Source: a virus
IMG/VR virus record: IMGVR_UViG_3300028393_000021
DNA: 64,000 bases
Strand: one strand, 5' to 3'
The notes below the pieces were generated by a model. It was not told the DNA's origin and did not search any database. It was given only the letters and a program-made list of their open reading frames with translations. The position numbers were made by a program, and so were the translations under genes. Positions 1 through 58,152 of the stretch are shown in pieces (position 1 is the first letter of the stretch; each line of letters begins with the position of its first letter).

Positions 1-3000
1 TGACTGCCAGTAAACCCCTGACTACCAGTATACCCAAAGCTACCAATATATCCAGTTGCGGTACTTGCTGATCCAGTATAACCTGTGCTACCTATATATC
101 CTAAGCTACCTGTAAAACCTCTACTACCTGTAAAACCTCTACTACCCGAATAACCTTTACCCGCTACAATAACAGGTATAATAACTTCCAAATTAAATGT
201 AGCAGTGGTTGATTGTGGCTTTTTATCATATACTGTAACAACATAATTTGTTGATGAAAATTTAGTATCAACCTGTCCTAATAGATGTCCACTAATAGGA
301 TCAAACTCTAATCCAGACGGCAGCGTAGTAGGTAGTATACTGTAGGTATATGGCGCAATACCGCCAATTGCTGTAACTGGTTGAAAATTATTAGTTGAAT
401 AAATTTCTAAACTATATATACTTTGTCCAGCAGTTGCTACTAACGGGTCTGGAGTTATTTCATTTATAAGTAGACGGAATGACCCACTATTAGATTGCCC
501 ATAAGTATCAGTTACGGTTACTGTAAATGTGGTATCTGTTCCTGCTATTGGTGTTTCGTCAATTGTTCCATTTATATATCGTAGTGATGATGGCAGTGAT
601 CGATCTAATGCATAAGTAAGATTTCCTGACCCTTGGGCACTTATAGGAATAATAGGAGTAATATACTGAAGAGCTGTTCCATTTATTGTAGGATGGTCTA
701 TCGAAATAGTTATAGGTTTAGGTACAACATTAAGTAAGAAACTAGTACTAGAAGTTTGTGGTACTGTTAAAGAATCAGTAGCTGTAACTACATAAGTTGT
801 TGTAGCTGAAGTAATACTAGCTACACCACTAATAGCACCACTTGATAGATCAAATATAAGTCCACTTGGAAGATTTGGCGGTTTAGTATATTTGATTGTA
901 CCTTCACCGCCGGAACCTAGTACTGGTGTAAATGATGGAAAACTACTATTAAGTAATAACGTAACACTAGCAGTAGTTGCAGTAGTAGTTAACGATGGAG
1001 GTTCTTTTATATATAAATTAAAAGTTTTGAAACTTGAATTATTTGCACTATCTGTAACAGTTACAGTAAATGTTGTTGTAGTTAATAATGTTGTACTTGG
1101 TGTACCACTTATTTCACCAGTAGAATTATTAAAATTAAGCCCGCCAATATTATTAAATGTAATTAATGGCGATAATGTAAAGCTATTTCCACCTGCACCA
1201 TACGTAGCTGTTACTGGGGTAAATGAAGTTATTAATTTACCCCTAGTCAACTGCATGTTCACCGGAGCCACCGACGGTGGAGCATATGCAGTTGCTAGTG
1301 GTCTATATGTAACTATTAATGCATAAGTCTGACTACTAATTTGCCCTAATCCATCAGTGACTTTTATAGTATATGTTTTAGTCCCATTTGTATTTGTGGA
1401 CGGGCTTCCACTTATTTGTCCATTGGTGGTACTAAACGTTAATCCAGTGTCTGCTGCAAGGTCAGTAGGTAATGTTTCAAACTTTAACGGAGGGGTTCCT
1501 GGAGAAACAATAGTAACCGGAGTAATTGCACTGCCAATACTTTCATTTTTGTAAAATGTACTACTTGAAATCGTTGAAGTAGTTGCAAGTGCGGGTGCAT
1601 CCTGTACTGTTAATACAAATGTACTAATGCTTTGCGTGTTTAACGAATCAGTGACAGTAACAGTATACGTATTTGATCCCGATGTACTAGTGCTTGCTGC
1701 TGTACCAGAAAGTACGCCAGTAACTGTACTAAACGACAAGTTGGGTGGTAAACTTGGACTAGGATTAATAGCATATGTATATACTTCAGAGCCACCAGTA
1801 ACAGTTACTGGTTGATATGAATTCGCTACTAACTTTGTGAATACTTTAGGTGTTATAACTGTAGGTACAATTGCCCTTGTATTAACAGTTAATGTAAATG
1901 TACCGGTTGCAACCTGCTTTGCTTGATCAGTTACTGTAACTGAAAAAGTAGTAGCAGTTATTAGATATGTTGACGGTGTACCTGTTATCTCACCATTCGA
2001 TGTATTAAAATTAAGTCCGGTGGGCAACAATACATTATTTGTACCAGTGATAACATATTTTAATGTACTGTATCCGGGTGATGTTGTATAAACCGGAGTA
2101 AATGCAGTTACTGGATCTTTATGTAATAATGTTTTACTTCCAATTGATCCTACAGTTAATGGAAGTGGATTATCTATTTGAATAGTAAATGCAGTACTAC
2201 TTGTTTGCAATGCTGCATCAGTGACTGTGACAGTATAAGAAGCTACACCACTTGTTGCAGTAGTAGGGGTTCCAGAAATAGTTCCACCAACAACTGATCC
2301 ATTTGTTACAGTTGTAAATGCTAGTCCTAATTGTGAAGTTATATTAGGTGCAATAGAATATTTGTATGCGCCATCACCATTAGATGCAGTTACTGGGGCA
2401 GCGGATGTGATAGGTACACCTACTGTACCTGATATTCTACCAACAACTGCTAATGTAGTGTTTAATGGTACAGACAGAATAGACAGCGTAAATGTTGCAG
2501 TCTTGGTTTGAGGTGTCGGAGCTTGGTCAGTTACTGTTACTATAAAGGGAGTCGACGACAACAACCCACTAGGAGTACCACTAAGAACACCTGCACTTGA
2601 AAAACTCAGCCCAACTGACGCTAGTGTAGCAGTATTCGTTACAGTAAATGTTTTATTCAAATAACCATTATTAGCACTAATTGGGCTAGTTGGCAACCCT
2701 GCCGAACTGTTCTTAGTTAAACTAATTGTTGGCGAATTAACTGATACTGTTAATGCCGGTAATGCAGTTATCTCTAAAGAAAAAGATAATTTATTAGTGG
2801 TCGGAGGAGTATTTGAATCAGCGACAGTAACTTCAAAACTTTTTACGCCGCCTGTTACTGTGGTTCCGGGTCCTCGAACAGTACCAGTTGTAAAAGTTAA
2901 ACCATACGCTATTACATCCGGTGATATTGTATAACTTAGTGGAGCAATACCGCCTGTGCCTAATATTGGTTTAAATTCTGTAAATGGAACTGTTTGAACA

Positions 3001-6709: not shown

Positions 6710-6734
6710 CTGGGTCTTCCTCCCTCAAACGCCT

Positions 6735-6983: not shown

Positions 6984-6991
6984 ACTAGTAT

Positions 6992-7858: not shown

Positions 7859-7862
7859 AGTA

Positions 7863-14565: not shown

Positions 14566-15141
14566 TTATTCATAAAATATATGTTGACCAATTTGTATAA
14601 TACGTTTACGTTTCCATCCCGGCGATATATACGAAGCATGATAATACAGTGCTTTGTCTAAACTAGGTAAACGGAAGCCTTCTAGGAGAACTTTCTTGGC
14701 CACTTCCTCGCTTTCTCTGTAGCTGGCATTGTTAGGTGGTCGCATACTTGAATCTCTATCACACGTCCAAGAAAACTGGCATATAACCTTTTCATAAAAG
14801 ACATTGCGTTGATAGATTGTTTTGCAAATATCATCCGGAAACTGCCCGCTTTTTACACGGTTTATTGTTACCTGCGCGACGGCAACTCTCCCCTCAAATG
14901 ACTCGTTGCCTGCTTCATAGTAAATATTTTTGGATAGACACCCTAGTTGTCTTTCTCGCAAGGCTGAAGTGATTTGAGAGCTCTCAACGGGTGTATATTT
15001 GTCGAGCTTATCGAGCACAACCCAATTGAGCATAAACACTGATGTTATCAGTGCCAGTACCATTAATGCAAATGTTACTGCGGATAGTGCTGTTTTAGAA
15101 ACTTCAGGTGCGTATACCTTGTCTAATGTTAATTCAGTCAT
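14566..15141 (-). CDS. Cell-wall hydrolase, SleB/Hydrolase_2 family, with an N-terminal membrane anchor
   Basis: 'CLSKNIYYEAGNE..EG.VAVAQVTINRV...FP..IC..IYQ...QFSW...ALYYHA.YI.P.W...IGQHIFY'. Confidence 0.9.
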   Translation of the reverse strand: MTELTLDKVYAPEVSKTALSAVTFALMVLALITSVFMLNWVVLDKLDKYTPVESSQITSALRERQLGCLSKNIYYEAGNESFEGRVAVAQVTINRVKSGQFPDDICKTIYQRNVFYEKVICQFSWTCDRDSSMRPPNNASYRESEEVAKKVLLEGFRLPSLDKALYYHASYISPGWKRKRIIQIGQHIFYE

Positions 15142-15232
15142 AGTGACCTCCTTTTTCGTTGATGGTAAAATAGTTATGCTACAACGACTATTATACCGTC
15201 AAGGCAGGTAAAAAACAACAAGTTTGACTGAG

Positions 15233-16393
15233 TTAGTGAATAATATGCAACATGTTACAATGATCAATTAGAAAATCAAAGTTTTGATTGTATTGAGTGT
15301 CCGATTGTTTAGCAACAAACAATGCCTTGTTACGCTCTGCAATTGCATTACAATCTTTAACCAACTGTTGATATTTATCAGTTGGCAAATTAGATATACG
15401 TTCAATTTCTGCAACAATCATATTTGCTCGTTTATTATGATCAAGTTCTAAATCATACGCTTCATTAATATACGGACTAAACGTTTCAAAGCCTAATTCT
15501 CTAACTTGTTCTAAAAAATAAGGAGTAGAAAATGCAATAAATGGCCTAACACACACAATTGGTTTATATCCTTTTTCTGACATAAAACTTGGTGCTAATT
15601 TTCTATGATATATATTATCCGGACCTGTTGGTGCATAATAAAAATCATAATGTGTTTCTACTAACACATGAATATCTGCAGAAAATACAGTTCTATATGT
15701 TTCATCATCCCAAGCATTTAAAAGAACATTTTTTTTTAATTTATATGGAATATTATCCATCCATTGTAACACATCATGCCCTATTGATCCAAAATTAGTT
15801 TTATGTAAGTCTTCTAGCATACGATCTTTATCAAAATGAATTACTTCACCATATGGGTGAATATTATAAAAACTATATATAAAATCTTTTAATAAATTTC
15901 TTTCAGCTAACCTAGCATATAGATGTAATCGCCAATTTACATAACGTCTACTTAATGCACTAAATTTCTTTGTAATTAATCGATCATTAATTAATAATTT
16001 CGAATTCACTAGCCCTATATTATAAATTCCAATTGTAATACCACGTATGTTTAATTCGTTTAATCTATCTTCAAGAAATGATTTATGAACTTCATCCATG
16101 ACCAGCATAAACATTTTACTGGTAGGAATTTGTTTTAGATCAATTAAATTTTTAATCTGTTCTGCTAATTCACATGTAAAAGTTTCATTACAATTTTCAT
16201 ATAAGAATTTTGCTGTAGGCTCAGAGCGTAAATGCTCCCAATGAATATCATCGAATGCATTCACTATTGTGCCGCCGTGGTAGGGATGATAATGATAAAT
16301 TACATCAACATCAGATTTCCAATCGCTTAATGATTTAAAATGTGTAGCTTTATAAGTTAAATGATAAAATTGTCCGCTTCTGTTGTAAATCAT
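15233..16393 (-). CDS. Putative glycosyltransferase-like protein (TEK-motif, GT-B-like family)
   Basis: C-terminal 'VLVETH...SEKGYKPIVCVRPFI...LEQVRELGFETFSP.INE.YD'; paralogous to the next ORF. Confidence 0.45.
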   Translation of the reverse strand: MIYNRSGQFYHLTYKATHFKSLSDWKSDVDVIYHYHPYHGGTIVNAFDDIHWEHLRSEPTAKFLYENCNETFTCELAEQIKNLIDLKQIPTSKMFMLVMDEVHKSFLEDRLNELNIRGITIGIYNIGLVNSKLLINDRLITKKFSALSRRYVNWRLHLYARLAERNLLKDFIYSFYNIHPYGEVIHFDKDRMLEDLHKTNFGSIGHDVLQWMDNIPYKLKKNVLLNAWDDETYRTVFSADIHVLVETHYDFYYAPTGPDNIYHRKLAPSFMSEKGYKPIVCVRPFIAFSTPYFLEQVRELGFETFSPYINEAYDLELDHNKRANMIVAEIERISNLPTDKYQQLVKDCNAIAERNKALFVAKQSDTQYNQNFDFLIDHCNMLHIIH

Positions 16394-17682
16394 TATAGTA
16401 CTCCATATTTTTCTACGATTTTATCCAATTCTATATTTTTCATACTGTATAAATGTTCGGCATTATATTCAAGTATGTCTTTAACCTTGTATGAGAATTC
16501 AATTTTTTGCTCTTCAGACCACTTGCTTATGAGTTCAACTAGATCAAATATTTTATTAAATCTAACCTCATGGTCAGTTTCTTGATCATAACTTTCATCC
16601 CAAAACTCACTAAACGTTTTGAATCCCATATCTCTTATATGTTGTAAACTGCCCGGAGATGCAATTATAATAAATGGTTGTAACTGTGCAATTGGTTTAA
16701 ATGTCTTTTCAGTCACATGAATTATTTTATTAAAAAAGAAAGTTTCAGTAATGATATTAATTAAAGAGTTTTTATAAAATGTTTCTAAATCATCGGGGCT
16801 TGACTCCATAGGATACAATTCAAAATCAGGTTTGTCTAATACCAAAGGCAATGTTGATTCACACCTAGCAATGTCCTCAATGGTAAAATTATATTGTGGA
16901 TGATTGTGAACTAAGTGCGATATAGTAGTAGTAAACGATTGACCTGATCCCGGTTGCGTCTTTGCCATACTCATATAAAAGTCAGCTAATAATTTACGTT
17001 TTTCCATCATCATAAAAAATATTAACCTATGCGAATGGTATCGCCTATTAAAACATAAAAATGTTTTATTTCTACTTCCAGGCTCATATGTTGTTAATGG
17101 TTTATTAACATCAATATCAGTTCTATCAATTCGTGTAGTTGGAATATACTCCATGTGCATTTCAGGTGCTATACTATGTCTAGCACAGTGATCAATATAA
17201 ATTTCTTGCCCATTGGCACAATGTGAAATGTATATAATTTGTGATAATGGAATTTGTTTGTAATCAAAATAGTGTTTCATTGACTGTAAAAATACATCAT
17301 CGAGAAAGCTTTCATGTAATATAGTGATTAAAATAAATGCTTCTTTATTTTTTACACGAGATATAATTTCAGGGGTTATATTGTTGTGATCTAACAATCC
17401 GTCATTGATATGAAACATATGTAATATATCTCTATAATTATAATTCCCAAAATTTATTTCATATAAAAATACATCAGTTGGTAATGTGCAGGCTGGTATA
17501 ATATTACAGTTAGATTTAAATTGAGTATAACAATGTGGTATATGATGGAAATCCCAACGTATAGTGTTAGGGGGATCCATCACGTATTGATCAACTAGAT
17601 CAATCATTGTAGGTACTCTATTATTAGTGATAGGGCCGCGTGGACCAATCCATTCATAGACAAAATTCAATTTCTTAGTCAT
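16393..17682 (-). CDS. Putative glycosyltransferase-like protein (TEK-motif, GT-B-like family)
   Basis: 'FLCFNRR...HR...INIITET...VTEKTFKPI..LQPFII...GFKTFSEFWDESYD'; reminiscent of the GT10 C-terminal TEK motif. Confidence 0.5.
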   Translation of the reverse strand: MTKKLNFVYEWIGPRGPITNNRVPTMIDLVDQYVMDPPNTIRWDFHHIPHCYTQFKSNCNIIPACTLPTDVFLYEINFGNYNYRDILHMFHINDGLLDHNNITPEIISRVKNKEAFILITILHESFLDDVFLQSMKHYFDYKQIPLSQIIYISHCANGQEIYIDHCARHSIAPEMHMEYIPTTRIDRTDIDVNKPLTTYEPGSRNKTFLCFNRRYHSHRLIFFMMMEKRKLLADFYMSMAKTQPGSGQSFTTTISHLVHNHPQYNFTIEDIARCESTLPLVLDKPDFELYPMESSPDDLETFYKNSLINIITETFFFNKIIHVTEKTFKPIAQLQPFIIIASPGSLQHIRDMGFKTFSEFWDESYDQETDHEVRFNKIFDLVELISKWSEEQKIEFSYKVKDILEYNAEHLYSMKNIELDKIVEKYGVL

Positions 17683-19057
17683 TTAAATCCTTGCATATAT
17701 TATGAAAATTTATCATTTCCGGAAATGTATTTAAAAAATCAGTGCCCCTTCGTGTATCTAATTCATTAAACCAATTATAGAAATCCTTACGTCCTTCATC
17801 TAGCTTATCATCATCATACGTAGTTGTTGCCATATAATCGACCACTCTTCTAAACTTTTCAAACTCCACGGATGAAAACTTGTTGGGATTAGAGTCATCT
17901 AAATTGTCTTCCATAAATTTTAAACTATCATGCATGTATGGCATAAACTCGTCTTTGGGTAGAATATTCATATCGTATTGCAATGGTTCTTTTAAGTACG
18001 GTGTATCAAACCTAACCATTTGTGGTTGATCAGTTTTGTTATATGGATTATATATTCTTCGCCACTCTAGTATTTTAACCAATAATTGTTTAAATGTTGT
18101 TACACATAAAATATTAAAGGTAATCATAAAACTTATAGGTTGTCCGGTTTCTTTAAGATATGCATCAAAGTTACGTTCCCATAATATTAAATCAAGTCCA
18201 GTTCTAACATATTCCGCTCGTGGACCCCAAGTATCGATACTAGTGTACAATTTAAATCTCTTAATACTGTTAGATGCTGTGAGAGAGTTAATTGACTCAA
18301 TCATTTTATCTACTAATCTAGATTTAACTCCCAAGTTACTATTGATATTCAATTCAAGATTAGGCATTGGGTCTTTTTCAAGACTATCTAATAATTTCCA
18401 TGTGCTGGTGTGCATCAATGGTTCGCCGCCCGTTATACGTAGAATAGATAATGTTTTACGCAGTTCTGGCCACCATTGCCACCAAGCATCAACATAAGGA
18501 TTTTTTTCTTCTCTTTCATATAAGTTCATCCAATCAATATCACAACGATGATTCTTTACAGTGGTAACAGGACCAAACTGTTTGATTTCATTATAAAATC
18601 TACTGCTGGCCTTGGGATGACAATATCCGCATTTGAAATTACATTCATTACCAAAACTAATTTCTACATATTCTGGATTTATATTTTGATCCCATGGGCC
18701 CGTTACAGCTTGTTTGTATCGTTCTTCGGTGAATATACTAGCAGTCTTAATATGCCTGTCACTGACATAGTCAGGGCCCATTGATTCAATATTCCAACAA
18801 TATTGGCATCCTTTGGTTTTAACACCCTCTAACATCTCTTTACGTTCTAACTTCTTATGAGAAGTATTATGCAATGCACTGGGATTATCTTTGAGTTCTT
18901 CTAAATTTATTGTGTGTGGTGCAGGATGATAACAACTATGTGTTTCACCTGTTTGTAAATATAAAGTAACATGATGCCATTTAGCTAAACAAAATGTTGG
19001 GCTTGTTTCGTTTACAATAGATATAACGGTTTTAATTCGGTGTTGTGCATTGTCCAT
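17675..19057 (-). CDS. Radical SAM protein with an N-terminal SPASM/twitch-like Cys cluster
   Basis: CxxxCxxC 'ECNFKCGYCHP', 'ITGGEPLM'; N-terminal 'FCLAKW...HSCYHP...GCQYCW'. Confidence 0.9.
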   Translation of the reverse strand: MDNAQHRIKTVISIVNETSPTFCLAKWHHVTLYLQTGETHSCYHPAPHTINLEELKDNPSALHNTSHKKLERKEMLEGVKTKGCQYCWNIESMGPDYVSDRHIKTASIFTEERYKQAVTGPWDQNINPEYVEISFGNECNFKCGYCHPKASSRFYNEIKQFGPVTTVKNHRCDIDWMNLYEREEKNPYVDAWWQWWPELRKTLSILRITGGEPLMHTSTWKLLDSLEKDPMPNLELNINSNLGVKSRLVDKMIESINSLTASNSIKRFKLYTSIDTWGPRAEYVRTGLDLILWERNFDAYLKETGQPISFMITFNILCVTTFKQLLVKILEWRRIYNPYNKTDQPQMVRFDTPYLKEPLQYDMNILPKDEFMPYMHDSLKFMEDNLDDSNPNKFSSVEFEKFRRVVDYMATTTYDDDKLDEGRKDFYNWFNELDTRRGTDFLNTFPEMINFHNICKDLND

Positions 19058-22000
19058 TTATTGTGCCTTTATTATTTTTATGTTTGTATAAAATTCTGCA
19101 AGTTCTGGGAACGTATCTATAAATTTTTTATTCCTAATGGTATCATAGTATTCCGTGTTTTCTTTAAATTCTTGTTGTGCAATTTCATTAACCGACGATG
19201 AATCTAACTGACTTATTACGTTTTTTATTTGATTTTTTATCATGCTATAGTTACTATCTGATAGTAAATCCATAGTTTTAATTTTATCTAATAACTTATC
19301 TTTAATATTATTTTTAATGTCAGCATTAATAATGTTAAAACTGTAAAAATTTGGATTAATAATATTATAAAACGTTACGTTGGTTGTGTCATCAACAAAA
19401 TTGTTTTCAATCATATAATCTATAAATTCTGGAATTGTATAAACATTGAACACAGATATCACAGATGAAATACCTATGAATATATGAGGGCATGATTCTT
19501 TAACTTTTTTAATATTTTGTACGATAGTTGGCCAATCGGTACCTTCTCGAATGTATTCAGCTCGACTGCCCCAACTATCTAAACTTACGTTTAAATGAAT
19601 ATTGGAAAACTCTTTCCATAACTTAATTACTGATAAATTTTTAAAGGTCAACGAACTTAAATTAGAATTATATCTAATTTTTATATTTGTATTTCCGGTA
19701 TTAATCAAATATTCAAGTATTTCGTAATGTTTGTCCATTAATAAAGGTTCGCCACCAGCAAAGTAAATTTCTTTAATTCCGGTTATATGAGGTCTAAGCT
19801 GATCAAATAATAAATCATTATTTTTTCCTCCTGAAAAAATAAAAACTTTTTTATTTTTGCCTTGCTTGTTATCTTCAGTGGCCCAACTAGAACTATATGT
19901 ACTAGAACAGCTTCGACATTTGAAATTACAGATGTTGCTCCATCGTATGTCAAGATATTTTAATTCCATTGTTTCCAAAGATCCATCCTGGTTTGTGTCA
20001 TGTACTAAATTTATAGATTCTGAAAGATACGAGGCATTCGATGATTGTCTAAAACTATGCACATTTGCATTTTCATTTTGATAACAAGCACTACATTCAT
20101 CACATTTTTTACCTGTTAACATTTTTAATCGCATTGACTTATATCGATCATTGTTCCATATTTCACTAATTGAATTTTGCTGTACATTACCTAACGGTTT
20201 GGTATAATCTCCAATACAGCAAGGTAGTACATCTCCATCTGGGTTTGCGTAAAAATGTATCCAGGGCAGTATACAAAATGTATTGGACTGTTTTATAGCA
20301 ATTTTAAATTGTTGATTTAACCAATTGTAATCGTTGATATTACTGATCGGTTCTTGGCTCAACGCATATTTGTTACCTTGCTCTGCTCCTAATTTTGCCC
20401 ATTTATAATATTCAGCTGTGACATCTGGATTTAACCATGCTTGCAATCGTTTGTTAGATTCTGCATCTTCTTTTTTAGATAACTTGGCACATTCTCTAAA
20501 TGCGGTTCTCCATGTGGCACAATCAGAAGTGTTAAATTTAGTAATGTTGCTAATTTTATTGATTACTTTTAACTTTTTTGATACACTTAATGTTAGGTCA
20601 GTACCCCATGATTTAAGATATTGTATCTTCGACTTGCTAAACAGCTTAACACCTCCGAAACCATAAGTCAAACCATTAACCGGATTTATACTATTCCAAA
20701 CATAGGTGCAATCTCTATCAAATATATTTGGTTGGAAATCAAATTGCCAATCATCCAATAAGTATGCATCTCCATCAACTACATAGAACATGTCAGACTT
20801 GGCTAATTTAGCCGCTGCCTTATGTGCTTCAAATATACCAGTAACTCTATCTACTCGTTTGGCCCAAGGTGCTTTTTCTAATACACGTTGCCAATTATCT
20901 TCAGCATTTAATTCATAGTAACTAATAAAAATAACATCTAACTGTTTGGCAATGTTAGGTAATAATGTATCAATTTGTTTTACTCCTGCTGTATCATCAA
21001 TGGCTGTTGCACTTAACGCCCAAATATTAGTTTGATTAGTTATAGATCGATCCAACATCCATACATGTTCATATTTAAAATCATGCCAAGGGATAACATA
21101 ATCTATATCATAACTTAATTTGGGTAAATTAGGATTATAGGTTATTTTGATAATTGGACTGACATAATCAATTATCTTAGACCCGTCAAGTTCAGTGGAT
21201 ACTTGTAAGGTAAATGCCCATATATCATCTTCACCATTTTGTAGGTGTTTGCGATCCAACATCCATACATGTTCATATTTAAAATCATGCCAAGGGATAA
21301 CATAATCTATATCATAACTTAATTTGGGTAAATTAGGATTATAGGTTATTTCAATTTTGGGACTAACATAATCAATTATCTTAGACCCGTCAAGTTCAGT
21401 GGATACTTGTAAGGTAAATGCCCATATATCATCTTCACCATTTAATAAATGCTTACGGTCTATCATCCACACATGTTCAAATTTAAAATCATGCCAGGGG
21501 ATAACATAATCTATATCATAGGTCATGGGCGGTAAGTTTGTATTATAGGTTATTTCAATTTTGGGACTGACATAATCAATTATCTTAGACCCATCAAGTT
21601 CAGTGGATACTTGTAAGGTAAATGCCCATAAATCATCTTCACCATTCAATAAATGTTTTTGATCCAACATCCACACATGTTCAAATTTAAAATCATGCCA
21701 GGGGATAACATAATCTATATCATAGGCCATGGGCGGTAAGTTTGGATTGAGTATCACAGTATATTCTGGACTAATTGTGCCTATCCATTTCCAATCTTTA
21801 GGAGCTCCCCACATGGGTTTAAATTTAATCACCCATAATCTTTTATCAGCAGAGGATATATGTTTATTATCTAAATCATATGCACACTCGTAGATCAAAT
21901 CCCAATAAGGTGGACAGCATTCATTGACATCAACACCGAGGTCAGGTAATACATCATTGAAAGATACTTCTATATCTGGAATTATATATCCCATGTGTTT

Positions 22001-22498
22001 AGTACCTAATATATCCCCCTCAACTAGTTGACAGCTGAATACCCAAACATCCTCATCTAATGGATTAAATCTAGGATCCATGTACCATATTAACTGGTAG
22101 TTCTTTTCCCATGGACTCGGTTGATATAGTCCGTAGGGGTTATCTTCAAACGTAATTTGTTTATCAACATCTGAATTGTAGGACCAGATTATTTTGGGTT
22201 TAACAATTTCAACCTGTTCATACCCGTGATATGGATACCAATCTTGTTTAAATATCTTAACTATCCATTCTCCCTGATAGCTAAGTATTACACATTTCCT
22301 TGTATCAGGAATTGTATCTACATAAAACTTTAAATCAGTATCCCATTGCTCTGGAATATTATTGTTGGGGTTTATTACCCAAAATTCCTTATGCCCTTTG
22401 CCCAATCCAAACAATTGAAAATCGTAGTGTAAAGGATCGCCAGTCCATGTTATGGCTGCGACTTTTTTTGGTGAGAGTTGATAGAGGTGTTCGAACAT
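19058..22498 (-). CDS. Multidomain protein: 68-aa repeats, GT-A-like domain, and SPASM plus radical SAM domains
   Basis: Four near-identical 68-aa repeats; central 'DVIFISY.E.NAE.NW...AHKAAA...FYVVDGDA' (DxD); C-terminal 'FCILPWIH...PCC' and 'NICNFKCRSCSS', 'YFAGGEPLL'. Confidence 0.85.
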   Translation of the reverse strand: MFEHLYQLSPKKVAAITWTGDPLHYDFQLFGLGKGHKEFWVINPNNNIPEQWDTDLKFYVDTIPDTRKCVILSYQGEWIVKIFKQDWYPYHGYEQVEIVKPKIIWSYNSDVDKQITFEDNPYGLYQPSPWEKNYQLIWYMDPRFNPLDEDVWVFSCQLVEGDILGTKHMGYIIPDIEVSFNDVLPDLGVDVNECCPPYWDLIYECAYDLDNKHISSADKRLWVIKFKPMWGAPKDWKWIGTISPEYTVILNPNLPPMAYDIDYVIPWHDFKFEHVWMLDQKHLLNGEDDLWAFTLQVSTELDGSKIIDYVSPKIEITYNTNLPPMTYDIDYVIPWHDFKFEHVWMIDRKHLLNGEDDIWAFTLQVSTELDGSKIIDYVSPKIEITYNPNLPKLSYDIDYVIPWHDFKYEHVWMLDRKHLQNGEDDIWAFTLQVSTELDGSKIIDYVSPIIKITYNPNLPKLSYDIDYVIPWHDFKYEHVWMLDRSITNQTNIWALSATAIDDTAGVKQIDTLLPNIAKQLDVIFISYYELNAEDNWQRVLEKAPWAKRVDRVTGIFEAHKAAAKLAKSDMFYVVDGDAYLLDDWQFDFQPNIFDRDCTYVWNSINPVNGLTYGFGGVKLFSKSKIQYLKSWGTDLTLSVSKKLKVINKISNITKFNTSDCATWRTAFRECAKLSKKEDAESNKRLQAWLNPDVTAEYYKWAKLGAEQGNKYALSQEPISNINDYNWLNQQFKIAIKQSNTFCILPWIHFYANPDGDVLPCCIGDYTKPLGNVQQNSISEIWNNDRYKSMRLKMLTGKKCDECSACYQNENANVHSFRQSSNASYLSESINLVHDTNQDGSLETMELKYLDIRWSNICNFKCRSCSSTYSSSWATEDNKQGKNKKVFIFSGGKNNDLLFDQLRPHITGIKEIYFAGGEPLLMDKHYEILEYLINTGNTNIKIRYNSNLSSLTFKNLSVIKLWKEFSNIHLNVSLDSWGSRAEYIREGTDWPTIVQNIKKVKESCPHIFIGISSVISVFNVYTIPEFIDYMIENNFVDDTTNVTFYNIINPNFYSFNIINADIKNNIKDKLLDKIKTMDLLSDSNYSMIKNQIKNVISQLDSSSVNEIAQQEFKENTEYYDTIRNKKFIDTFPELAEFYTNIKIIKAQ
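21049..21760. repeat. Four tandem 204-bp near-identical coding repeats
   Basis: Marker 'atcatgcc' recurs at 21080, 21284, 21488 and 21692 (period 204). Confidence 0.95.
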
Positions 22499-22539
22499 TA
22501 TACTACTAATTATCCTAGCAGTTAATGATGTCTAAAATA

Positions 22540-24765
22540 TTATAAAATATTTGTTGGTAAGGTCACGATAGCTGTTGCGGTAGTTATAACAGCCGTTGGC
22601 AGCATACTCACAGTTCTAATCGGTGCCCATGTAATGACTTTGTTACTGACAGCAACTGACCAAGCAGAAGCAGTGGCATTTTCAAACACATGAGCTATTA
22701 CAATTCCAGATTTTGTAGGGTTGTAATATATATTGTAATCATACACTAATGGTTGGTTATAAACCACTGTGGTACCCTGTAATATCGTGTAGCCAGTGTA
22801 ACTCTTAAGGGATGCTGATATTTCACTTGTTACAATAAATTTATATTCAACCCCATCAACCAACACTGGATTGGCACCATTTGTGTTAGCTAACAATGTG
22901 TTCCCATAATATATAGTGGTATCGAAGTCATGCGATACGATACCGGCCCAGAATGATTCAATTTGTGTAGATGGATACACTGGGTTAGGATTAAATGGTA
23001 CACCGGGCGGTAGTGGTGGAGTTACGGGCGTTGGAGCGGCACTCACATTACCAATAATCATACCTTGACCTTGAACATAACCATTGGCAATTGCAGCATT
23101 ATTACAACGTACAACCACAGAAAAATGTCCACCTGGGTTTTGAGCAAAATAGTTAGTAGACTTGAAGGTAAACTCAAACGTACATCTGCCAGGACCAAGA
23201 TTATAATCATTTGTGGTTGTGGAGGTCAGTTCATAATAATCGAGTGCGGGGCTATTATTATTAAATGCCCACGATGATGAATCCACAGTTACTCCATTTG
23301 GAACAATCGTGGGCAGTGATGAAGACAAAGTTGGTACTAGACTATCAAATCCTCTAAACAATAGTGTTCTTGTACCATCACCTAGGGGTCCTGAGTTTAA
23401 TTGAGAATACCGGCCGTTGATATCCGAATTAGAATAATAGTATAATGCTCTGGTTAAATTTTTTAAGGTAGCATCAAATTCTGCATTTCCACTGAGTTCT
23501 CTTAGATTGTTTAACGCTATGGTTATATTACCTCGTCCATCATGATTAACAATAAACATAGATTTATATCCCGGACTTTGCTCATATCCAAAATATTGCT
23601 CGTAATTATAACCCTCAGTGGTTTTTCTAATATAATTCGGAACAATATCGTTGTCAAGTGACCCACTTAGGTAGGTATAACTATATTCGGTTAACACAAA
23701 ACTCCAAACATTGGCCCAATACGGGAATTTAAGATTGGAACTTCTTGCTCTATAACTCAAATTATTTACATCAACTAGGTTATAACCTCCTTGGTCATAT
23801 CGAGAGGCATAATCTCCCCCCATACCAACTCCAATGGTTAATATACGTTGATCATTGATAGTATCAAGACTCATTCCAATAATACTATTATAACTCGAAG
23901 CGGGACTGACCCAACTGGCTAGATTGTTATATTTTAAATAATCAATGTCAACATAGCTGATATTTGTTATAGTTTTGGTTCCTAAAAATTGACCCGATTC
24001 TGATACCGACACTGTTAAAGTAGACCGGTATGTGCCTGTGTTATTGTTTACTAGGTCAGGATTCCAAACTATATGAATAGTATTGACTGTGCCTGTGGTC
24101 ACTGACCAGCCGGGATCACCCGATATACTGGTATTAAATGTTAAATTTGTACCAGTATATGTTACCCCATTCGTACGTTTATTAAGTATGATATCAGTTG
24201 AATTGGTTTGACCCAAAATTGTAGTATATGTGACAAATGTACTGTTCGATGCCACAATGTTTTCATCATTGCTGATACTTTGATACGTATTGACTTGATA
24301 TTCAGGATTTTGTGCATTGGAAAAGAACACAAGGCTGTTGATATATTCACCGGGTGCAATTGCTGTATAGGAAATTAGAAATGATGCAGTTGTACCCGCT
24401 AACAAAGTGACATTTGTACCACTGATGAGACTTTGAGCCACTGTTCCATAAAATTTTGGAATAATAACACGGCTTTTTACCAATGAACATGTAAAATCAA
24501 AACTGGTTAGAGTAATAGTGGTTCCACCGTCATTGTATAATATTAAATTTTGTATATCAGATTCATCTCTTGGAGAAGAAACAAACGTTACCGGGGTAGA
24601 TACTCTTAACACACCATAATTAGCCACAGGTGCTGTTAATGTTGCTCCGTCAAGAGTCAATGTAGTGGCAACCACAGCAGGTGGTGGACAATATATAGAA
24701 GCAGTGGAATTTGTTGCACCGACAGCACTTTTTATTTTTATGTTTACAGCTACTTGAGTTGCCAT
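22540..24765 (-). CDS. Putative virion structural or fibre-associated protein
   Basis: 741 aa, S/T/N-rich and beta-rich; no catalytic motif recognised. Confidence 0.55.
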   Translation of the reverse strand: MATQVAVNIKIKSAVGATNSTASIYCPPPAVVATTLTLDGATLTAPVANYGVLRVSTPVTFVSSPRDESDIQNLILYNDGGTTITLTSFDFTCSLVKSRVIIPKFYGTVAQSLISGTNVTLLAGTTASFLISYTAIAPGEYINSLVFFSNAQNPEYQVNTYQSISNDENIVASNSTFVTYTTILGQTNSTDIILNKRTNGVTYTGTNLTFNTSISGDPGWSVTTGTVNTIHIVWNPDLVNNNTGTYRSTLTVSVSESGQFLGTKTITNISYVDIDYLKYNNLASWVSPASSYNSIIGMSLDTINDQRILTIGVGMGGDYASRYDQGGYNLVDVNNLSYRARSSNLKFPYWANVWSFVLTEYSYTYLSGSLDNDIVPNYIRKTTEGYNYEQYFGYEQSPGYKSMFIVNHDGRGNITIALNNLRELSGNAEFDATLKNLTRALYYYSNSDINGRYSQLNSGPLGDGTRTLLFRGFDSLVPTLSSSLPTIVPNGVTVDSSSWAFNNNSPALDYYELTSTTTNDYNLGPGRCTFEFTFKSTNYFAQNPGGHFSVVVRCNNAAIANGYVQGQGMIIGNVSAAPTPVTPPLPPGVPFNPNPVYPSTQIESFWAGIVSHDFDTTIYYGNTLLANTNGANPVLVDGVEYKFIVTSEISASLKSYTGYTILQGTTVVYNQPLVYDYNIYYNPTKSGIVIAHVFENATASAWSVAVSNKVITWAPIRTVSMLPTAVITTATAIVTLPTNIL

Positions 24766-24777
24766 TATTGATCCTTA

Positions 24778-26010
24778 TTATGCACCACCACTGTTGGTGA
24801 TGTTGGCGTAATCGTTTGCAGCAGCCTCGGCGGCAGCAGCAGCAGCGGCGGCGGCGGCGGCAGCAGCGGCGGCAGCAGCGGTGGCAGCAGCGATGGCAGC
24901 ATCTGCTATAGCGGTAGCAGCAGGGGCGTTGCTTGCAGCCAAATTTACTGGCGTAGGGGCCGGAACATAGTTATCGTACCAATATTGGGCAAATGCAGCA
25001 CCTTCGACCGGACCAGTAATTAAAGGACCGTCAAATGTAGCAGGATCTAAATGTAATAAAACTGTTATATACCACGTTCTAAACTGTTGTCTAACTAGAT
25101 CTTTATTAGCTGCATACGCTGCATCAAGGGCCACTTGTACTGGATCTACTGGTGGAGGTGGTGTTGGGGGGCCAGAGGTATTACCACCCGGGCCAGTGAC
25201 GAAAGGACCAATGACAACAATGTTGCTTGCAGTGTTAGAGGCGGTGGTGCTGGTGGTGGCAGTGGTCTGCGTGTTTTGATACGTTATTGTAAAATCCACA
25301 ATATTTTCCTCAGCGGATTTCACAGCTACCACACTGATACGCAGGGTACCACTGGAGTAATTTCGAGTCACTGTGCTGCCCGATACAAAATTACTACGAT
25401 AATATTTGAACTGTTGATCAGGTGTGCTGGCAATATAGTTGAGCCAATTGGCCCACTCAATATCAAGGTCATTGGCTCCACTGCCTTCATAACTGGGCGA
25501 CCAAGCAATATAATTACCATTGTTGAAATAATATCGTGCAATTAGAGCCGTGGACCAAGCAGCTCTGACCTGGTGAGTTATGATACTGGTACCATTGGCA
25601 CCCCAGGCCGAGGTGCGTGTGCTACTGGTATTGACTGAATACACAATGGTGCTTTCGCCAGTGTGTTGAAATTGATTGGGATGACAGGTATATCTATTGA
25701 TCAAACAATAATCCACCATGGCCTTGATTTGATTGTAAAACACAGCCTTGATCACATTACTACTAGTGGATATGTTGGACACAGTGTTGGTACTGGTGAC
25801 CAAATTACTGATGTGTGTGTACACACTACCCACATTCCTTAACAAAGTATTGGCTTGATCTGCACTGATTATACTGCCGGTTATTGTGGGGCTGACCACG
25901 CTGATCCCATAACCATTCTGACCTATACTTCTTATATCAGCAGCGATACTTTGAATAGCATTGAAATCAGAACTTAATGCTAGGGTTCCTGAAGTGGTTG
26001 GTAGTGACAT
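24778..26010 (-). CDS. Putative virion structural protein with a Pro-rich linker and poly-Ala C-terminus
   Basis: TATAAATA 5 nt upstream; S/T-rich; long run of Ala codons near the end. Confidence 0.55.
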   Translation of the reverse strand: MSLPTTSGTLALSSDFNAIQSIAADIRSIGQNGYGISVVSPTITGSIISADQANTLLRNVGSVYTHISNLVTSTNTVSNISTSSNVIKAVFYNQIKAMVDYCLINRYTCHPNQFQHTGESTIVYSVNTSSTRTSAWGANGTSIITHQVRAAWSTALIARYYFNNGNYIAWSPSYEGSGANDLDIEWANWLNYIASTPDQQFKYYRSNFVSGSTVTRNYSSGTLRISVVAVKSAEENIVDFTITYQNTQTTATTSTTASNTASNIVVIGPFVTGPGGNTSGPPTPPPPVDPVQVALDAAYAANKDLVRQQFRTWYITVLLHLDPATFDGPLITGPVEGAAFAQYWYDNYVPAPTPVNLAASNAPAATAIADAAIAAATAAAAAAAAAAAAAAAAAEAAANDYANITNSGGA

Positions 26011-27899: not shown

Positions 27900-28544
27900 A
27901 TGAATCACTGTATATACTGTAGTAAGGAAATTAATAGCACACGCTCAAAACAGCAGCACGAACTTCGCTGTAAGCATAATCCACAGGCTATAGTAGTTAA
28001 AGCATCATACGGCATGTTAGGCAAACAAGGAAGAAATCAATATTCAAAAGCAAAGGATGAAGGAAGACAGGAACCAAAACAGACTTCCGAATCTAGGGCT
28101 AAAGGATTAGCAACTAAAATTAGAAATGGAACTCTAACTCATACTGAAGAATCAAAAAAGAAATTATCCGACTCTATGAAACGGGCTGTACTGAAAAACC
28201 CCGCAGCATATACCAGCAGTAACCGAGGACGAACCAAACAAATCATAGTTGACGGAGTTAAACTACAAGGGCAATGGGAAGTTGACTTTTATAAATGGGC
28301 AACTGTTGAAGGATTAGCGCCGAAAAAGGTTGAACAAGGGTTTCCCTATATATGGAATGATAATGAACACGCATACTTCCCGGACTTTTATATTCCCAGT
28401 CTGGACATATACGTAGAAGTTAAAGGTTACGAAACCGACCGTGATCGGGCCAAGTGGTTGCACTTCCCTTATAAGTTGTGTATAATAAAAGCTAAGGAAA
28501 TAAAACAAATCCGTACGGGTAGTTTTAGAGGGTTGGTAGCTTAG
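27900..28544 (+). CDS. Putative free-standing homing endonuclease (Zn finger, NUMOD3-like, PD-(D/E)xK)
   Basis: 'CIYC...HELRC', 'HTEESKKKLSDSMK', 'YFPDFYIP..DIYVEVKGY'. Confidence 0.7.
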   Translation: MNHCIYCSKEINSTRSKQQHELRCKHNPQAIVVKASYGMLGKQGRNQYSKAKDEGRQEPKQTSESRAKGLATKIRNGTLTHTEESKKKLSDSMKRAVLKNPAAYTSSNRGRTKQIIVDGVKLQGQWEVDFYKWATVEGLAPKKVEQGFPYIWNDNEHAYFPDFYIPSLDIYVEVKGYETDRDRAKWLHFPYKLCIIKAKEIKQIRTGSFRGLVA

Positions 28545-28606
28545 TGTCCTAAAGCAGTGTTCTCATAAAGCATTGATCGTGGGTTAGAATCCCACCCAAC
28601 CCACCA
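28530..28606 (+). tRNA. tRNA with CAT anticodon (elongator Met or Ile2; not initiator-like)
   Basis: Acceptor GGGTTGG/CCAACCC plus A-CCA; anticodon loop CT-CAT-AA (28564-66); T-arm GTGGG-TTAGAAT-CCCAC; G1-C72 paired. Confidence 0.92.
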
Positions 28607-28991: not shown

Positions 28992-29288
28992 TTAACTACA
29001 AGCGTATTGACGAGCGGGGATTAACTTATTATCCTCTATATACTTTAATACTGTATAAAAGTGTTCTCTGGGTAATGTATCCTGCCGCATAATATTATCA
29101 TGCAACTGTGCAGCATTTAGAGTATTATTAAACACTTGTAGTGCAGCAGCATTATGAGTAATATCATCTGCACACATTTTAAACATAATAAAGTCCGTTT
29201 CATTTTCATCATAAAACGCTACAGTATTAACAAGTGGGATCATTAACTTATTAATAGCTACTGCATGTTGTGTCATTTGCTTGCTCAT
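28992..29288 (-). CDS. Hypothetical early protein; paralog of 29710..30009
   Basis: Shared 'HAVAINKLM.PL.NTV...FKM.ADDI.HN.AAL.VFN.TL...QDT.PREHFYTVLKYIEDN'; AAGGA ribosome-binding site. Confidence 0.8.
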   Translation of the reverse strand: MSKQMTQHAVAINKLMIPLVNTVAFYDENETDFIMFKMCADDITHNAAALQVFNNTLNAAQLHDNIMRQDTLPREHFYTVLKYIEDNKLIPARQYACS

Positions 29289-29306
29289 TTTGGTTCCTTT
29301 TTAAAA

Positions 29307-29567
29307 TTAAACAAACTCAATATTATTTGTACGCAATTGTTGTTTTACAATTTGTACAATACGTTCTTTATCTTTTTGCAATGTTTTATATACTATATCA
29401 CCGCTAACATAATCACATTTTTTTTGTGTAGGAAATACATGTACAGTATCTCCATTATCATTTTGTTTTGTATGTACATTAAAGGCAACTATAATCTTAT
29501 ATAGTTCCGTTTTTTTATTGTACATTAACTTGGCTTTAGCAAGTGTATTAACTGCTTGTGCAAACAT
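29307..29567 (-). CDS. Hypothetical early protein
   Basis: Start re-assigned to ATG 29567 after AAAGGAG and a minus-strand promoter cassette. Confidence 0.75.
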   Translation of the reverse strand: MFAQAVNTLAKAKLMYNKKTELYKIIVAFNVHTKQNDNGDTVHVFPTQKKCDYVSGDIVYKTLQKDKERIVQIVKQQLRTNNIEFV

Positions 29568-29592
29568 GTCAGCTCCTTTGTAGTGTAAGTGT

Positions 29593-29686
29593 ATTGTAAC
29601 ACCGTTTTGGAGTGCCGTCAAGTGTGGCTTTATATACACGGTCATAGTGTAGGGGGATTGACAAAGTGGCAAAAGTGTTGTATAAT
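29593..29686. promoter_or_regulatory. Divergent sigma70 promoter pair at the centre of the early island
   Basis: Minus strand TTGACG-17-TACAAT (29621-29593); plus strand TTGACA-17-TATAAT (29658-29686). Confidence 0.85.
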
Positions 29687-29709
29687 ACATTTTTAACAGA
29701 AAGTAAACA

Positions 29710-30009
29710 ATGCGTAAAGTAACTCGAGCCCATGCTGTAGCAATTAACAAGTTAATGCTGCCTCTCATTAATACTGTTTGCGGCTATTTTGACCCCACAG
29801 ATAATGACATCGATTTGTTTAAAATGTACGCAGACGACATTGCACATAATGTTGCTGCATTATGTGTGTTCAATAGCACATTAGACGCTAGTGTATTACA
29901 CAATAATATTATGTTACAGGATACTAGCCCGCGTGAGCATTTTTATACAGTGTTAAAGTATATAGAAGATAATGCGTTAATTAATGCTAATGCATTTTGT
30001 TGCAGTTAA
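29710..30009 (+). CDS. Hypothetical early protein; paralog of 28992..29288
   Basis: See the paralog; has its own promoter. Confidence 0.8.
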   Translation: MRKVTRAHAVAINKLMLPLINTVCGYFDPTDNDIDLFKMYADDIAHNVAALCVFNSTLDASVLHNNIMLQDTSPREHFYTVLKYIEDNALINANAFCCS

Positions 30010-30032
30010 ACACAGCACAAAGGCCCTGCTTG

Positions 30033-30086
30033 TTGTAGGGTCTTTGCCTAGGTGCTGTTGTGCATTTACAACAAAAGACCCTACAA
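30033..30086. repeat. 13-bp perfect inverted repeat carrying the GACCCTA cassette motif
   Basis: ttgtagggtcttt (30033-45) and aaagaccctacaa (30074-86). Confidence 0.8.
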
Positions 30087-30169
30087 AAAATAAGTTATTG
30101 ACAAGTGTGTAAAACTGCGTTATAATACACACATACGTTGCACAGTGTAGCGTATAAAAAGGAACTAAA

Positions 30170-30634
30170 ATGCAAGCAATTAATACACAAACAGTTAAAC
30201 AGTTTATTAATAACGTAACAACAGAGGGCTTTTTGTTTATTATAGATGTTAATAAAACATTTACTACAGCAGGTGACGGTTACTGGAGCGACGTTGCAAA
30301 AGATGTATTTGTTACTAGTATTGGCATGTATATTAGCACAGAAAACGAAGCAGACGAGGGCGAGGAAGCTATGTACTGCGACGGTGATTTAGCAGTTAAT
30401 TATACAGAAGCTACATGGGATAATGCTGTAGACGGATTAATTTATACTGACAAAGCATTTTTAGCACAAGTAAAAGAGTTTTTAATTGCACAGGGCTTTA
30501 ATGCAGAAGCAGTTAATGACATTACATATAGCGAGCAGGGTATGCAAGATAATGAGCGTGTTAGTTGCGATGCATATGCGTTTGCAGATTATATGCGTAC
30601 TATTAGTAATGCTGCTATTATTATTATAGATTAA
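30170..30634 (+). CDS. Hypothetical acidic early protein (no prolines; no TC or CC in the coding strand)
   Basis: Promoter plus AAGGA ribosome-binding site. Confidence 0.85.
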   Translation: MQAINTQTVKQFINNVTTEGFLFIIDVNKTFTTAGDGYWSDVAKDVFVTSIGMYISTENEADEGEEAMYCDGDLAVNYTEATWDNAVDGLIYTDKAFLAQVKEFLIAQGFNAEAVNDITYSEQGMQDNERVSCDAYAFADYMRTISNAAIIIID

Positions 30635-30751
30635 TAGCATAATAGCACAGCGTATTAACTACGCTGTGCTATAGCCCTACAGTGTGTAGGGTCTTTGGTT
30701 GACAATTTAGTAAAACCCTGTTATAATACAGTTATACACTAGGAGCACACA

Positions 30752-31081
30752 ATGCAAACACACATTTCAGAGACCAGGGAAGCTGGCTTCTTTGCTTATG
30801 CCGCAATGAGGGATGCTCGTATGCGTAACGAAGCAATGAAAAGCACCTACAGTGATTCAGAACGTGTACGAGCAGAGCGTATGCGTGTGGGACTAGAGTG
30901 TGTTTACCGTAGTAAAGAAGTACACATAAACTACCGTAAAAAGTTCATTGCGGTAAAACTTAGTAATGCAATTGTCAGAGACAGGGCTTCTGTAGCAGAT
31001 TTAGAACGTTTTTATGCACTAGAGGGCATAAGCAAAGAAATTACGCCCCAAGCAATTATATACAGAATCCCCCGTCATTGA
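30752..31081 (+). CDS. Hypothetical early protein
   Basis: Promoter plus AGGAG. Confidence 0.8.
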   Translation: MQTHISETREAGFFAYAAMRDARMRNEAMKSTYSDSERVRAERMRVGLECVYRSKEVHINYRKKFIAVKLSNAIVRDRASVADLERFYALEGISKEITPQAIIYRIPRH

Positions 31082-47788: not shown

Positions 47789-48352
47789 ATGATTGAACAA
47801 ACATATCAGGGGTATCTGCTTGCATCGCATCCTAAACGTGTAGATCCGTATCTTAGAAGAAGCACAATGCTAATTATGGAACATAGTCTGGGTGGTGCCA
47901 TTGGATTACAAATTAATAAAAATTACAGTAATCTTACCCTAAAAAGTGTTATGGAAAATGTAGGGTTATCATTACCCAATGCACAAGATTATCCATTGTA
48001 TAATGGTGGACCCATACACACAAATAGAATTCATGTTGTACATACGCTTGATTGGTATAGTCCCACTACAATGAGAATAAATGATAAAATTGGCGTTAGT
48101 AAAGATATAAGTGTACTAACTGCACTGGCAAATAATGAAGGACCAGAGTATTTTAGAACCATAGCAGGTTATACCAAATGGTTACCAGGGCACTTAGATG
48201 GTGAGATTATAGGTGAAGACCCCTGGTCAATTAATCACTCATGGACATTTATCCCTGCAGATGTCAATACATTATTTGGACTTGACGACATCGATCAATG
48301 GCATAGGGTAATTTCTGAAAGTGGGAGGATACAAGTCTCCCACTGGTTTTAA
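47789..48352 (+). CDS. YqgE/AlgH (DUF179) family protein
   Basis: 'GYLLAS.P..VDPY..RS...EHS..GAIGL.IN...Y.GGP...GY..W.PG.LD.EI...SW...PAD...LF'. Confidence 0.85.
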   Translation: MIEQTYQGYLLASHPKRVDPYLRRSTMLIMEHSLGGAIGLQINKNYSNLTLKSVMENVGLSLPNAQDYPLYNGGPIHTNRIHVVHTLDWYSPTTMRINDKIGVSKDISVLTALANNEGPEYFRTIAGYTKWLPGHLDGEIIGEDPWSINHSWTFIPADVNTLFGLDDIDQWHRVISESGRIQVSHWF

Positions 48353-50788: not shown

Positions 50789-50793
50789 GCACT

Positions 50794-50822
50794 ATTTTAA
50801 CTTCTATATAAGATTTTGTCAA
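50794..50822 (-). promoter_or_regulatory. Sigma70 promoter for the primase, lying in the 3' end of the upstream gene
   Basis: TTGACA-17-TAAAAT-5 nt-ATG. Confidence 0.7.
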
Positions 50823-51594: not shown

Positions 51595-51615
51595 AAGGTA
51601 TTTATTTTAATTACG

Positions 51616-51993
51616 ATGAAAGATCAATTTCAAGAAAAATTCCCGTTTATTTCCTGTGTACAGTCTAATGAAAAAGAATATGTAGGCATTATTATCAATT
51701 TTGATAATGTTATTGCCAGTATATATGACATATCAATGATGTTAGATGAACAAACAAAAATAGCATTCTTAGAATTAGGGGAAGTTTGGTGGTGGGAAAG
51801 TAACCGCAGAATCCCTATCAATATTTTTCTTAAATCAGAAATGCAATCTTTTAAATCATTTATTAAAACATTCAATGCTAAAGAAGCATTGTTAGTTTTT
51901 GGCCCTGTTGTTAATTTAAGTGAAATTGCAGAAAAAAGAGTTAAACGTAAGTCAATACAGTTAGTACGATCTGTTAAGAGTATCCGTAGCTGA
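51616..51993 (+). CDS. Conserved hypothetical protein
   Basis: ORF track; 'WWWESNRRIPINIFL'. Confidence 0.7.
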   Translation: MKDQFQEKFPFISCVQSNEKEYVGIIINFDNVIASIYDISMMLDEQTKIAFLELGEVWWWESNRRIPINIFLKSEMQSFKSFIKTFNAKEALLVFGPVVNLSEIAEKRVKRKSIQLVRSVKSIRS

Positions 51994-53064: not shown

Positions 53065-53112
53065 TTAATTTCCATCCATGTTGCTCACAAAAACTTTTTA
53101 TATTTTCCATAC

Positions 53113-55034: not shown

Positions 55035-55035
55035 G

Positions 55036-58150: not shown

Positions 58151-58152
58151 AA

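Follow-up and report, generated by a model that had tools for sequence, protein, structure and literature searches.

The 64,000-nucleotide (nt) viral sequence IMGVR_UViG_3300028393_000021 from IMG/VR, which is referred to in its full length as the window, contains a small early gene whose sense strand is completely free of cytosines that follow a pyrimidine. Using YC to denote the pyrimidine-C step (TC or CC) and GR to denote its opposite-strand equivalent (GA or GG), we found that this ban is real, strand-specific and bounded by the transcript, and that within the window it affects one gene, the open reading frame (ORF) at 30170-30634 on the + strand (ORF154, which encodes an acidic early protein of 154 amino acids), and more weakly its inverted neighbor at 29307-29567 on the - strand. 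The + strand features 0 TC and 0 CC across the 595 nt at 30081-30675, whereas 23.9 TC and 11.3 CC, or approximately 35 YC steps, are expected from base composition. This run spans the promoter, the leader, ORF154 and the first hairpin; elsewhere in the window, YC-free runs reach at most 163 nt, and a maximum of approximately 90 nt is expected. A sliding scan of both strands of the window revealed no second such zone, and searches of the phage collection for close or remote DNA matches to the zone returned none. The GC content of the zone is 33-38%, compared with 41-47% in its flanks.

To hold the protein constant, we used a control in which codons were redrawn from the long ORFs of the window with the amino acids unchanged (5000 draws). 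ORF154 contains 0 YC, whereas this protein-fixed control predicts 17.6, with a minimum of 7 among all draws (p<0.0002). Shuffling the gene's own codon order resulted in a mean of 5.2 YC (p=0.0002 for the 0 observed), which rejects chance and indicates that the codon junctions of ORF154 are purged as well. The 61 cytosines of the gene are preceded only by A (29) or G (32), its protein has no proline, and none of its 6 serines is encoded by a TCN codon. The lack of proline is weak evidence for the ban, because members of this family contain little proline even when they are not purged (0-4 prolines per non-purged member). A preliminary description of this DNA had reported a YC-free run of 594 nt, one fewer than we count, together with the purine-C rule, the lack of proline and the exclusive use of AGY for serine; direct counting bears out these statements and all of its dinucleotide counts. 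That description had also named four genes around the divergent promoter as depleted, and the protein-fixed control sustains two of them.

The second of these two genes is the leftward 86-amino-acid gene at 29307-29567, which contains 4 YC on its own sense strand when 11.0 are expected (p=0.005) and 1 TC when 6.5 are expected; read on the + strand, it shows 1 GA and 3 GG. With the protein fixed, neither flanking paralog shows significant depletion. The 99-amino-acid paralog at 29710-30009 on the + strand is low in TC (5; p=0.085 for TC alone) and normal in CC (8), for a total of 13 YC when 17.6 are expected (p=0.11), and the 98-amino-acid paralog at 28992-29288 on the - strand is mildly depleted, with 6 GA and 7 GG on the + strand, which equal 13 sense YC when 16.8 are expected (p=0.17; p=0.25 for TC alone). 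As described previously, the bias tracks the sense strand, changes sides at the divergent promoters and no longer applies to the next gene, ORF 30752-31081, which has 9 TC and 12 CC. Furthermore, the 37 downstream + strand ORFs (30.7-43 kb), which have consensus promoters of the same type, contain 0.75-2.15 times their protein-fixed expectation of YC, with 34 of the 37 at or above it, which indicates that the ban is all-or-none and gene-specific, with no gradient across the early region. At the upstream edge of the zone, the YC-free stretch before the start is 52 nt for ORF154 and 16-87 nt for 25 control promoters. The edge is therefore indistinguishable from the YC-poor promoter stretch that is usual in this phage, and an edge test does not separate a reader of RNA from a reader of DNA.

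The same rule is evident in related viral contigs. Homologs of ORF154 number more than 600 in metagenomes and occupy 308 loci in the viral collection, and orthologs with 50-70% amino acid identity contain 0-2 YC, when approximately 30 are expected, on contigs of 45-49% GC; overall, the ban is held by diverged lineages that span 35-49% GC. Pooling 47 distinct purged genes from 26 related viral contigs yielded 78 YC when 1161 are expected, and 20 of the 47 contain none. Proline accounts for 0.2% of residues in the purged genes and for 3.7% in 819-823 normal genes from the same loci, and 95% of serine in the purged genes is encoded by AGY. The purged proteins are small and acidic, with a median net charge of -8.5 per 100 amino acids. 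YC-free runs extend to 1244 nt in contig L003 and 1327 nt in L031, L032 and L035, and purged runs in relatives cover up to four adjoining small genes, always on the coding strand. Homologs of the 86-amino-acid gene lie mostly upstream of the ORF154 homolog on the same strand and are purged (0 YC when 14.8 are expected in L003, and 2 when 17.7 are expected in L031). In the window, this gene is inverted and is purged on its new sense strand, which suggests that the rule travels with the direction of transcription. The homolog of the 99-amino-acid paralog in L017 contains 13 YC when 31.5 are expected. YC content is normal in more distant homologs, namely those of the complete jumbo phages L013 and L014, the short contig L012 and Xanthomonas phage X1. 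Taken together, these comparisons indicate that, across related phages, selection excludes YC from a few small early units on their sense strand.

The purged runs of the relatives also differ in how they end. In L005, L006 and L072, the purge stops within the next gene, which encodes a small membrane-like protein and is YC-free for its first 25-50 codons and normal in the remainder, and in L017 the purged run stops at or before the start of the small membrane-like gene. The margin past the last purged stop codon is accordingly about 80-150 nt in the former three contigs and about 27 nt in L017. Several contigs (L002, L005, L009-L011, L018, L020, L021 and L026) end within a few kilobases of the ORF154 homolog, and L002 breaks inside it; the region may adjoin a repeat or a hypervariable stretch that halts assembly.

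The composition of the purged genes defines the rule further. In the pooled set, TC and CC are reduced to 0.054 and 0.057 of expectation, respectively, which represents equal removal, and every one of the eight YCN and the eight NYC trinucleotides shows an 8- to 60-fold depletion. Removal also depends on the 3' neighbor, with YCA the strictest and YCT the least strict, a difference of approximately four-fold. Among four-fold degenerate NYN codons, the share of C falls from 20-26% to 1-2%, and the loss goes mainly to A rather than T: GCA rises to 52% from 34% in normal genes and ACA to 58% from 34%, and T is barely increased in GCN and ACN. Among two-fold degenerate codons, C after a purine is favored more than in normal genes (GAC 80%, AGC 85%, GGC 57%), whereas TTC falls to 2% and ATC to 0.6%. 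Total C is lowered from 21.8% to 18.1%, G amounts to 25.2%, and TT is over-represented (observed/expected 1.41). The shift of C to A and the retention of C behind purines indicate recoding under selection rather than C-to-T decay.

The limits of the ban coincide with those of the transcript. YC is present in the untranscribed spacers between the -35 and -10 elements of promoters that drive purged genes (L006 and L037), and in the shared CCCTA...TAGGG terminators that end the units, which indicates that the ban is tied to the transcribed stretch. Hairpins located inside purged units lack YC in both arms, and their stems consequently also lack GA and GG. The ban thus covers leaders, codons, codon junctions and some hairpins, overrides codon preference and amino acid composition, acts site by site and stops beyond the transcribed part. 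The purging of junctions and untranslated parts leads us to reject codon-level causes, such as tRNA depletion or ribosome-dependent toxins. The sequence by itself fits equally well with a rule of no YC in the RNA or non-template strand and a rule of no GA or GG in the template strand.

The window derives from an uncultured phage that is a relative of Pseudomonas phage PA5oct. Positions 48349-63951 are colinear with 129-148 kb of PA5oct across a replication and virion module, with 23-61% amino acid identity (mostly 34-61%; UvsX 61%, DnaB 53%, helicase 51%), which places the window phage among the PA5oct-like giant phages. Closer colinearity was observed with a complete 383-kb viral contig (33-87% identity, mostly 45-87%). 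On this comparative evidence, the ban is common to a clade of PA5oct-related giant phages. Literature searches found no published description of such zones.

PA5oct and the related contig L007 additionally contain islands of 200-530 bp in which G and C occur but GA, GG, TC and CC are all missing from both strands. The L007 island at 6834-7386 holds a 101-amino-acid ORF (6989-7294) without Asp, Glu, Gly or Pro. The surrounding L007 sequence (5560-8250) features an inverted repeat (TTCGCACGTGC, a loop of 20-25 nt, GCACGTGCGAA) in dozens of copies, which occupy the spaces between purged genes, and many of the TC and GA steps of that region fall inside these elements. Four islands of 140-310 bp with normal G + C content were observed in PA5oct (MK797984) at 267253-267563, 239300-239498, 264906-265149 and 277055-277232, which lack GA/GG and/or TC/CC, partly on both strands. 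Upstream of a tRNA cluster, one of the four lies within promoter-like tandem repeats (TTGCAA-17-TATAAT), and one covers the doubtful annotated ORF EST35_0386.

What reads the YC step can so far be named only as a candidate, and our best single guess, held tentatively, is that the phage avoids its own guanine modification at GA and GG on the template strand. Under this proposal, the phage, like its relative PA5oct, would chemically modify guanine in GA and GG steps of its own DNA, and its earliest genes would have to be transcribed from the incoming decorated DNA. Those genes would be written as clean lanes, in which the strand that serves host RNA polymerase as template offers no G for modification, and the opposite strand would remain modified and protected. 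If every modified template G costs some transcript, even single sites would be removed. Because TC and CC are purged equally, the ban amounts to one rule on the template, a G followed by a purine. The preliminary description had mentioned that the DNA of coliphage CAjan is modified at GA and GGC, and the published work agrees (PMC7544227). PA5oct DNA resists several restriction enzymes, which suggests modified G at GA and/or GG, and PA5oct carries QueE- and PTPS-like genes (PMC12191111, preprint). In addition, 7-substituted 7-deazaguanine in the template inhibits the RNA polymerases of Escherichia coli and Bacillus subtilis in vitro (PMC4838386). PA5oct and the closer relatives G003 and G002 all carry genes for GTP cyclohydrolase I (FolE) and PTPS/QueD, and both genes are absent from L013 and L014, the two jumbo phages whose ORF154 homologs are not purged.

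Several observations weigh against modification as the cause. The inhibition by 7-deazaguanine in vitro was judged to affect initiation rather than elongation (PMC4838386). Within the 64-kb window, profile scans and tblastn revealed no Que gene. In the relatives, QueC yielded weak, partial family matches only and no homolog, and many radical-SAM genes are present, none of which was assigned as QueE. The Pfam TGT family was unmatched in five related viral records, including the complete 383-kb one; this absence of TGT/DpdA is uninformative because PA5oct, which is reported to be modified, is likewise unmatched. The other 37 early ORFs have GR-rich templates, which host polymerase must read anyway, and every early promoter retains GA in its -35 hexamer. 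The small early genes of PA5oct are not purged, including that of the tested anti-END inhibitor gp52, and no zones were found in CAjan, with its modified GA/GGC, or in Xanthomonas phage X1, which encodes FolE and PTPS. A variant in which a host nuclease nicks at modified G, and counter-defense genes therefore retain a clean template, was also considered and rejected, as gp52 of PA5oct is non-purged and without a homolog in the window.

Evasion of the transcription terminator Rho is possible but, in our view, doubtful. According to this explanation, a YC-free transcript would offer Rho no loading site and would be read to its end even when it is poorly translated early in infection. The primary RNA-binding site of Rho consists of six clefts, each specific for 5'-YC (PMC6144790), which is an exact match to the banned dinucleotide. 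Rho is also nearly universal, which would fit a recurrence of the rule in unrelated phage lineages. The equal purging of TC and CC, the position of the ban on the RNA-like strand and within the transcribed part only, the tolerance of YC in promoter spacers as well as at the terminator or beyond it, and the excess of G over C in purged genes (25.2% and 18.1%) are all consistent with Rho as the reader. Since stems in YC-free RNA must lack GA and GG too, Rho evasion can also account for some of the two-strand islands. However, Rho needs several YC per 60-80 nt, in clusters with a spacing of 9-13 nt, and the loss of isolated sites and of proline (0.2% compared with 3.7%) exceeds that expectation; C is little lowered and is even raised behind purines. 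The residual YC steps of partly purged genes do not avoid the 9-16 nt spacing suited to neighboring clefts (51 observed and 43 expected, from data too few to be informative). Moreover, the L007 gene at 6989-7294 that is purged on both strands is not predicted by Rho evasion, the approximately four-fold greater strictness for YCA than for YCT is not a known property of Rho, and the other early genes are YC-rich.

We likewise regard as possible, with considerable reservation, that the purged genes escape an enzyme of host defense or of phage shut-off that cuts or marks YC in RNA or single-stranded DNA, with their products serving as counter-measures that are expressed meanwhile. A single hit would then suffice to inactivate a message, and such one-hit logic fits the site-by-site removal that leaves 20 of the 47 purged genes without any site. 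The inclusion of leaders, junctions and some terminator hairpins, the 3' neighbor preference, which is typical of enzymes, and the restriction of the ban to a few small acidic early proteins, which is the usual look of anti-defense proteins, point in the same direction. Among known ribonucleases, one Csx1 enzyme reportedly cuts at C-C. On the other hand, hosts of several phage lineages would all have to possess such an enzyme, and YC is present in the terminator at the end of most purged units. Nor does an enzyme account for those two-strand islands of PA5oct that lie in promoter DNA with no apparent transcription. We know of no enzyme with YC specificity, which also counts against this explanation. 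The window offers no obvious candidate, as its endonuclease gene (8925-9749) and its deaminase-like gene (52558-53064) appear ordinary. Three known activities were considered and rejected as the reader. ADP-ribosylation of mRNA of the CmdTAC type acts at GA in mRNA, and the ORF154 message keeps 28 GA and 17 GG, with YC alone banned. DarT1 targets guanine on single-stranded DNA and has no consensus motif, and the TNTC motif of DarT2 leaves the ban on CC unexplained.

Mutational erosion is very unlikely. It would involve conversion of YC to YT on the exposed non-template strand of genes with very high transcription, either by a deaminase that prefers TC and CC or by ultraviolet (UV) dipyrimidine damage with transcription-coupled repair, both of which the preliminary description had offered as alternatives. 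The strand polarity is as expected from erosion, and so is the excess of TT (observed/expected 1.41). However, the C lost from four-fold codons became mostly A (the GCA and ACA shifts given above), C-ending codons behind purines are enriched with only a modest fall in total C, and the reading frames are intact and conserved across lineages. The neighbors behind identical promoters are YC-rich. These results set aside the deaminase, and the codon shifts, the persistence of the ban at 35-49% GC and the YC-rich neighbors do the same for UV damage. The footprint of an APOBEC- or DddA-type enzyme, YC to YT on the exposed strand, was not observed, as the lost C is mainly A and C is enriched after purines. 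Finally, we consider it next to impossible that the zone is no real feature but a by-product of AT-richness, amino acid composition or codon bias, as the preliminary description had allowed: the zone is AT-richer than its flanks and the ORF154 family is proline-poor even in non-purged members, but 0 YC were found when 17.6 are expected with the protein fixed, the junctions are purged (p=0.0002), orthologs at 45-49% GC are purged equally, and TTC and ATC make up 2% and 0.6% in spite of the preference for C-ending codons elsewhere.

The ORF154 unit is the second rightward cassette of the early region and consists of a promoter, leader, ORF, hairpin and shared terminator. Its promoter (30098-30126, + strand) is a consensus sigma-70 promoter, TTGACA-17-TATAAT, with 12/12 matches, and the GA in the -35 hexamer on the sense strand indicates that the ban on that strand concerns YC only. 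Direct reading of the sequence after the stop codon revealed a hairpin with a 12-bp stem (30643-30671, + strand), both arms of which lack YC, so its stem is also without GA and GG. The shared cassette terminator that follows (GCCCTACA...TAGGGTCTTTG; 30674-30697, + strand; repeat family D5) holds the first YC past the zone. Two promoters identified by a promoter scan diverge at the left edge of the early region, a leftward TTGACG-17-TACAAT (29593-29621, - strand) and a rightward consensus promoter that precedes the 99-amino-acid paralog (29658-29686, + strand). From approximately 29.6 kb rightward, the early region comprises small genes at approximately one per near-perfect sigma-70 promoter, often with a stem-loop. 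The window contains 26 promoter sites that match the pattern TTGAC[AT]-16..18-TA[TC]AAT, along with repeat families D1-D5 and terminator-like hairpins. Between 29593 and 43000, 25 near-perfect TTGACA-17-TATAAT promoters share spacer and leader sequence, and the genes of this region show an enrichment in YC, to as much as 2.15 times what the protein-fixed control predicts, opposite to the purged unit.

Other features of the window are located outside this region. Its replication module encodes a DnaB-like helicase, a primase, a UvsX-like recombinase and a ligase. An AT-rich block on the - strand (14566-26010; 28-34% GC) consists of large genes without assigned function and encodes two radical-SAM proteins, one of them a SPASM/radical-SAM protein of 1146 amino acids; arrays with a total of 12-14 radical-SAM genes are also present in each of the relatives G003 and G012, and no role was found for them. 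Just left of the purged zone, at 27900-28606, a tRNA-Met gene (28530-28606) shares its first nucleotides with the end, at 28544, of an ORF of an endonuclease family (phrog_15137). The gene at 52558-53064 on the - strand is dCMP-deaminase-like, with a borderline APOBEC_N match (25.4 bits, cut-off 25), and the gene at 8925-9749 on the - strand encodes a DNA/RNA non-specific endonuclease. Both look like ordinary phage functions of nucleotide metabolism, judging from their sequences.

The protein encoded by ORF154 yielded a confident AlphaFold2 model (pLDDT 91.5). No Pfam or PHROG family was assigned to it, neither Foldseek nor a wide VIA search returned a fold match for the model (best Z 3.7), and a protein atlas provided no usable match.

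A near-absolute dinucleotide ban on one strand, maintained by selection across a clade, is a clear natural imprint left by a factor that recognizes individual sites. The proteins pay for it with the loss of proline, of most codons for serine and of TTC and ATC, which are favored otherwise. If guanine modification is the cause, then GA/GG decoration would measurably hinder host transcription, and these genomes, their proteins included, would have been recoded around their own armor. If Rho is the reader, it would be a front-line barrier to phage early genes, and if an enzyme is, it would be a new dinucleotide-specific enzyme acting on RNA or DNA; a YC-specific defense enzyme or Rho as an antiviral barrier would be an equally new finding. 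The purged genes also provide a ready-made set of the early proteins for which timing is most critical to the phage; these proteins are probably counter-defense factors and have no known fold.

The zone can be compared with four known systems. The architecture of the early region, in which a consensus early promoter and a stem-loop accompany each small ORF repeatedly, resembles the promoter-early-stem-loop (PeSL) cassettes of T4-type phages such as RB49, which likewise combine a strong early promoter and a stem-loop per small gene, occur in many repeats, and are shuffled or inverted between relatives. However, PeSL is a term for modular architecture, and a dinucleotide ban has not been reported for it. 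With CAjan and PA5oct, the window phage shares the banned template step, as the motif reported for their modification is likewise a G before a purine, whereas those two phages leave their own early coding genes unpurged. To our knowledge, a strand-specific motif-free lane has not been described for any modified phage. The likeness to Rho utilization (rut) sites lies in the 5'-YC step, the RNA-like strand, the limitation to transcribed sequence and the excess of G over C, but known avoidance of Rho is statistical, based on C-poor, G-rich, structured or translated RNA, and is not an absolute ban that removes proline. Viruses also avoid motifs recognized by host factors, as with restriction sites in the early regions of phages, CpG in response to ZAP and TC in response to APOBEC3, and in each case selection removes a short word to escape a reader, as we propose for YC. 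Whereas those depletions are partial and are genome-wide or palindromic, the ban in the purged genes is near-total, strand-specific and confined to a few transcription units, and it reshapes the proteins that they encode.

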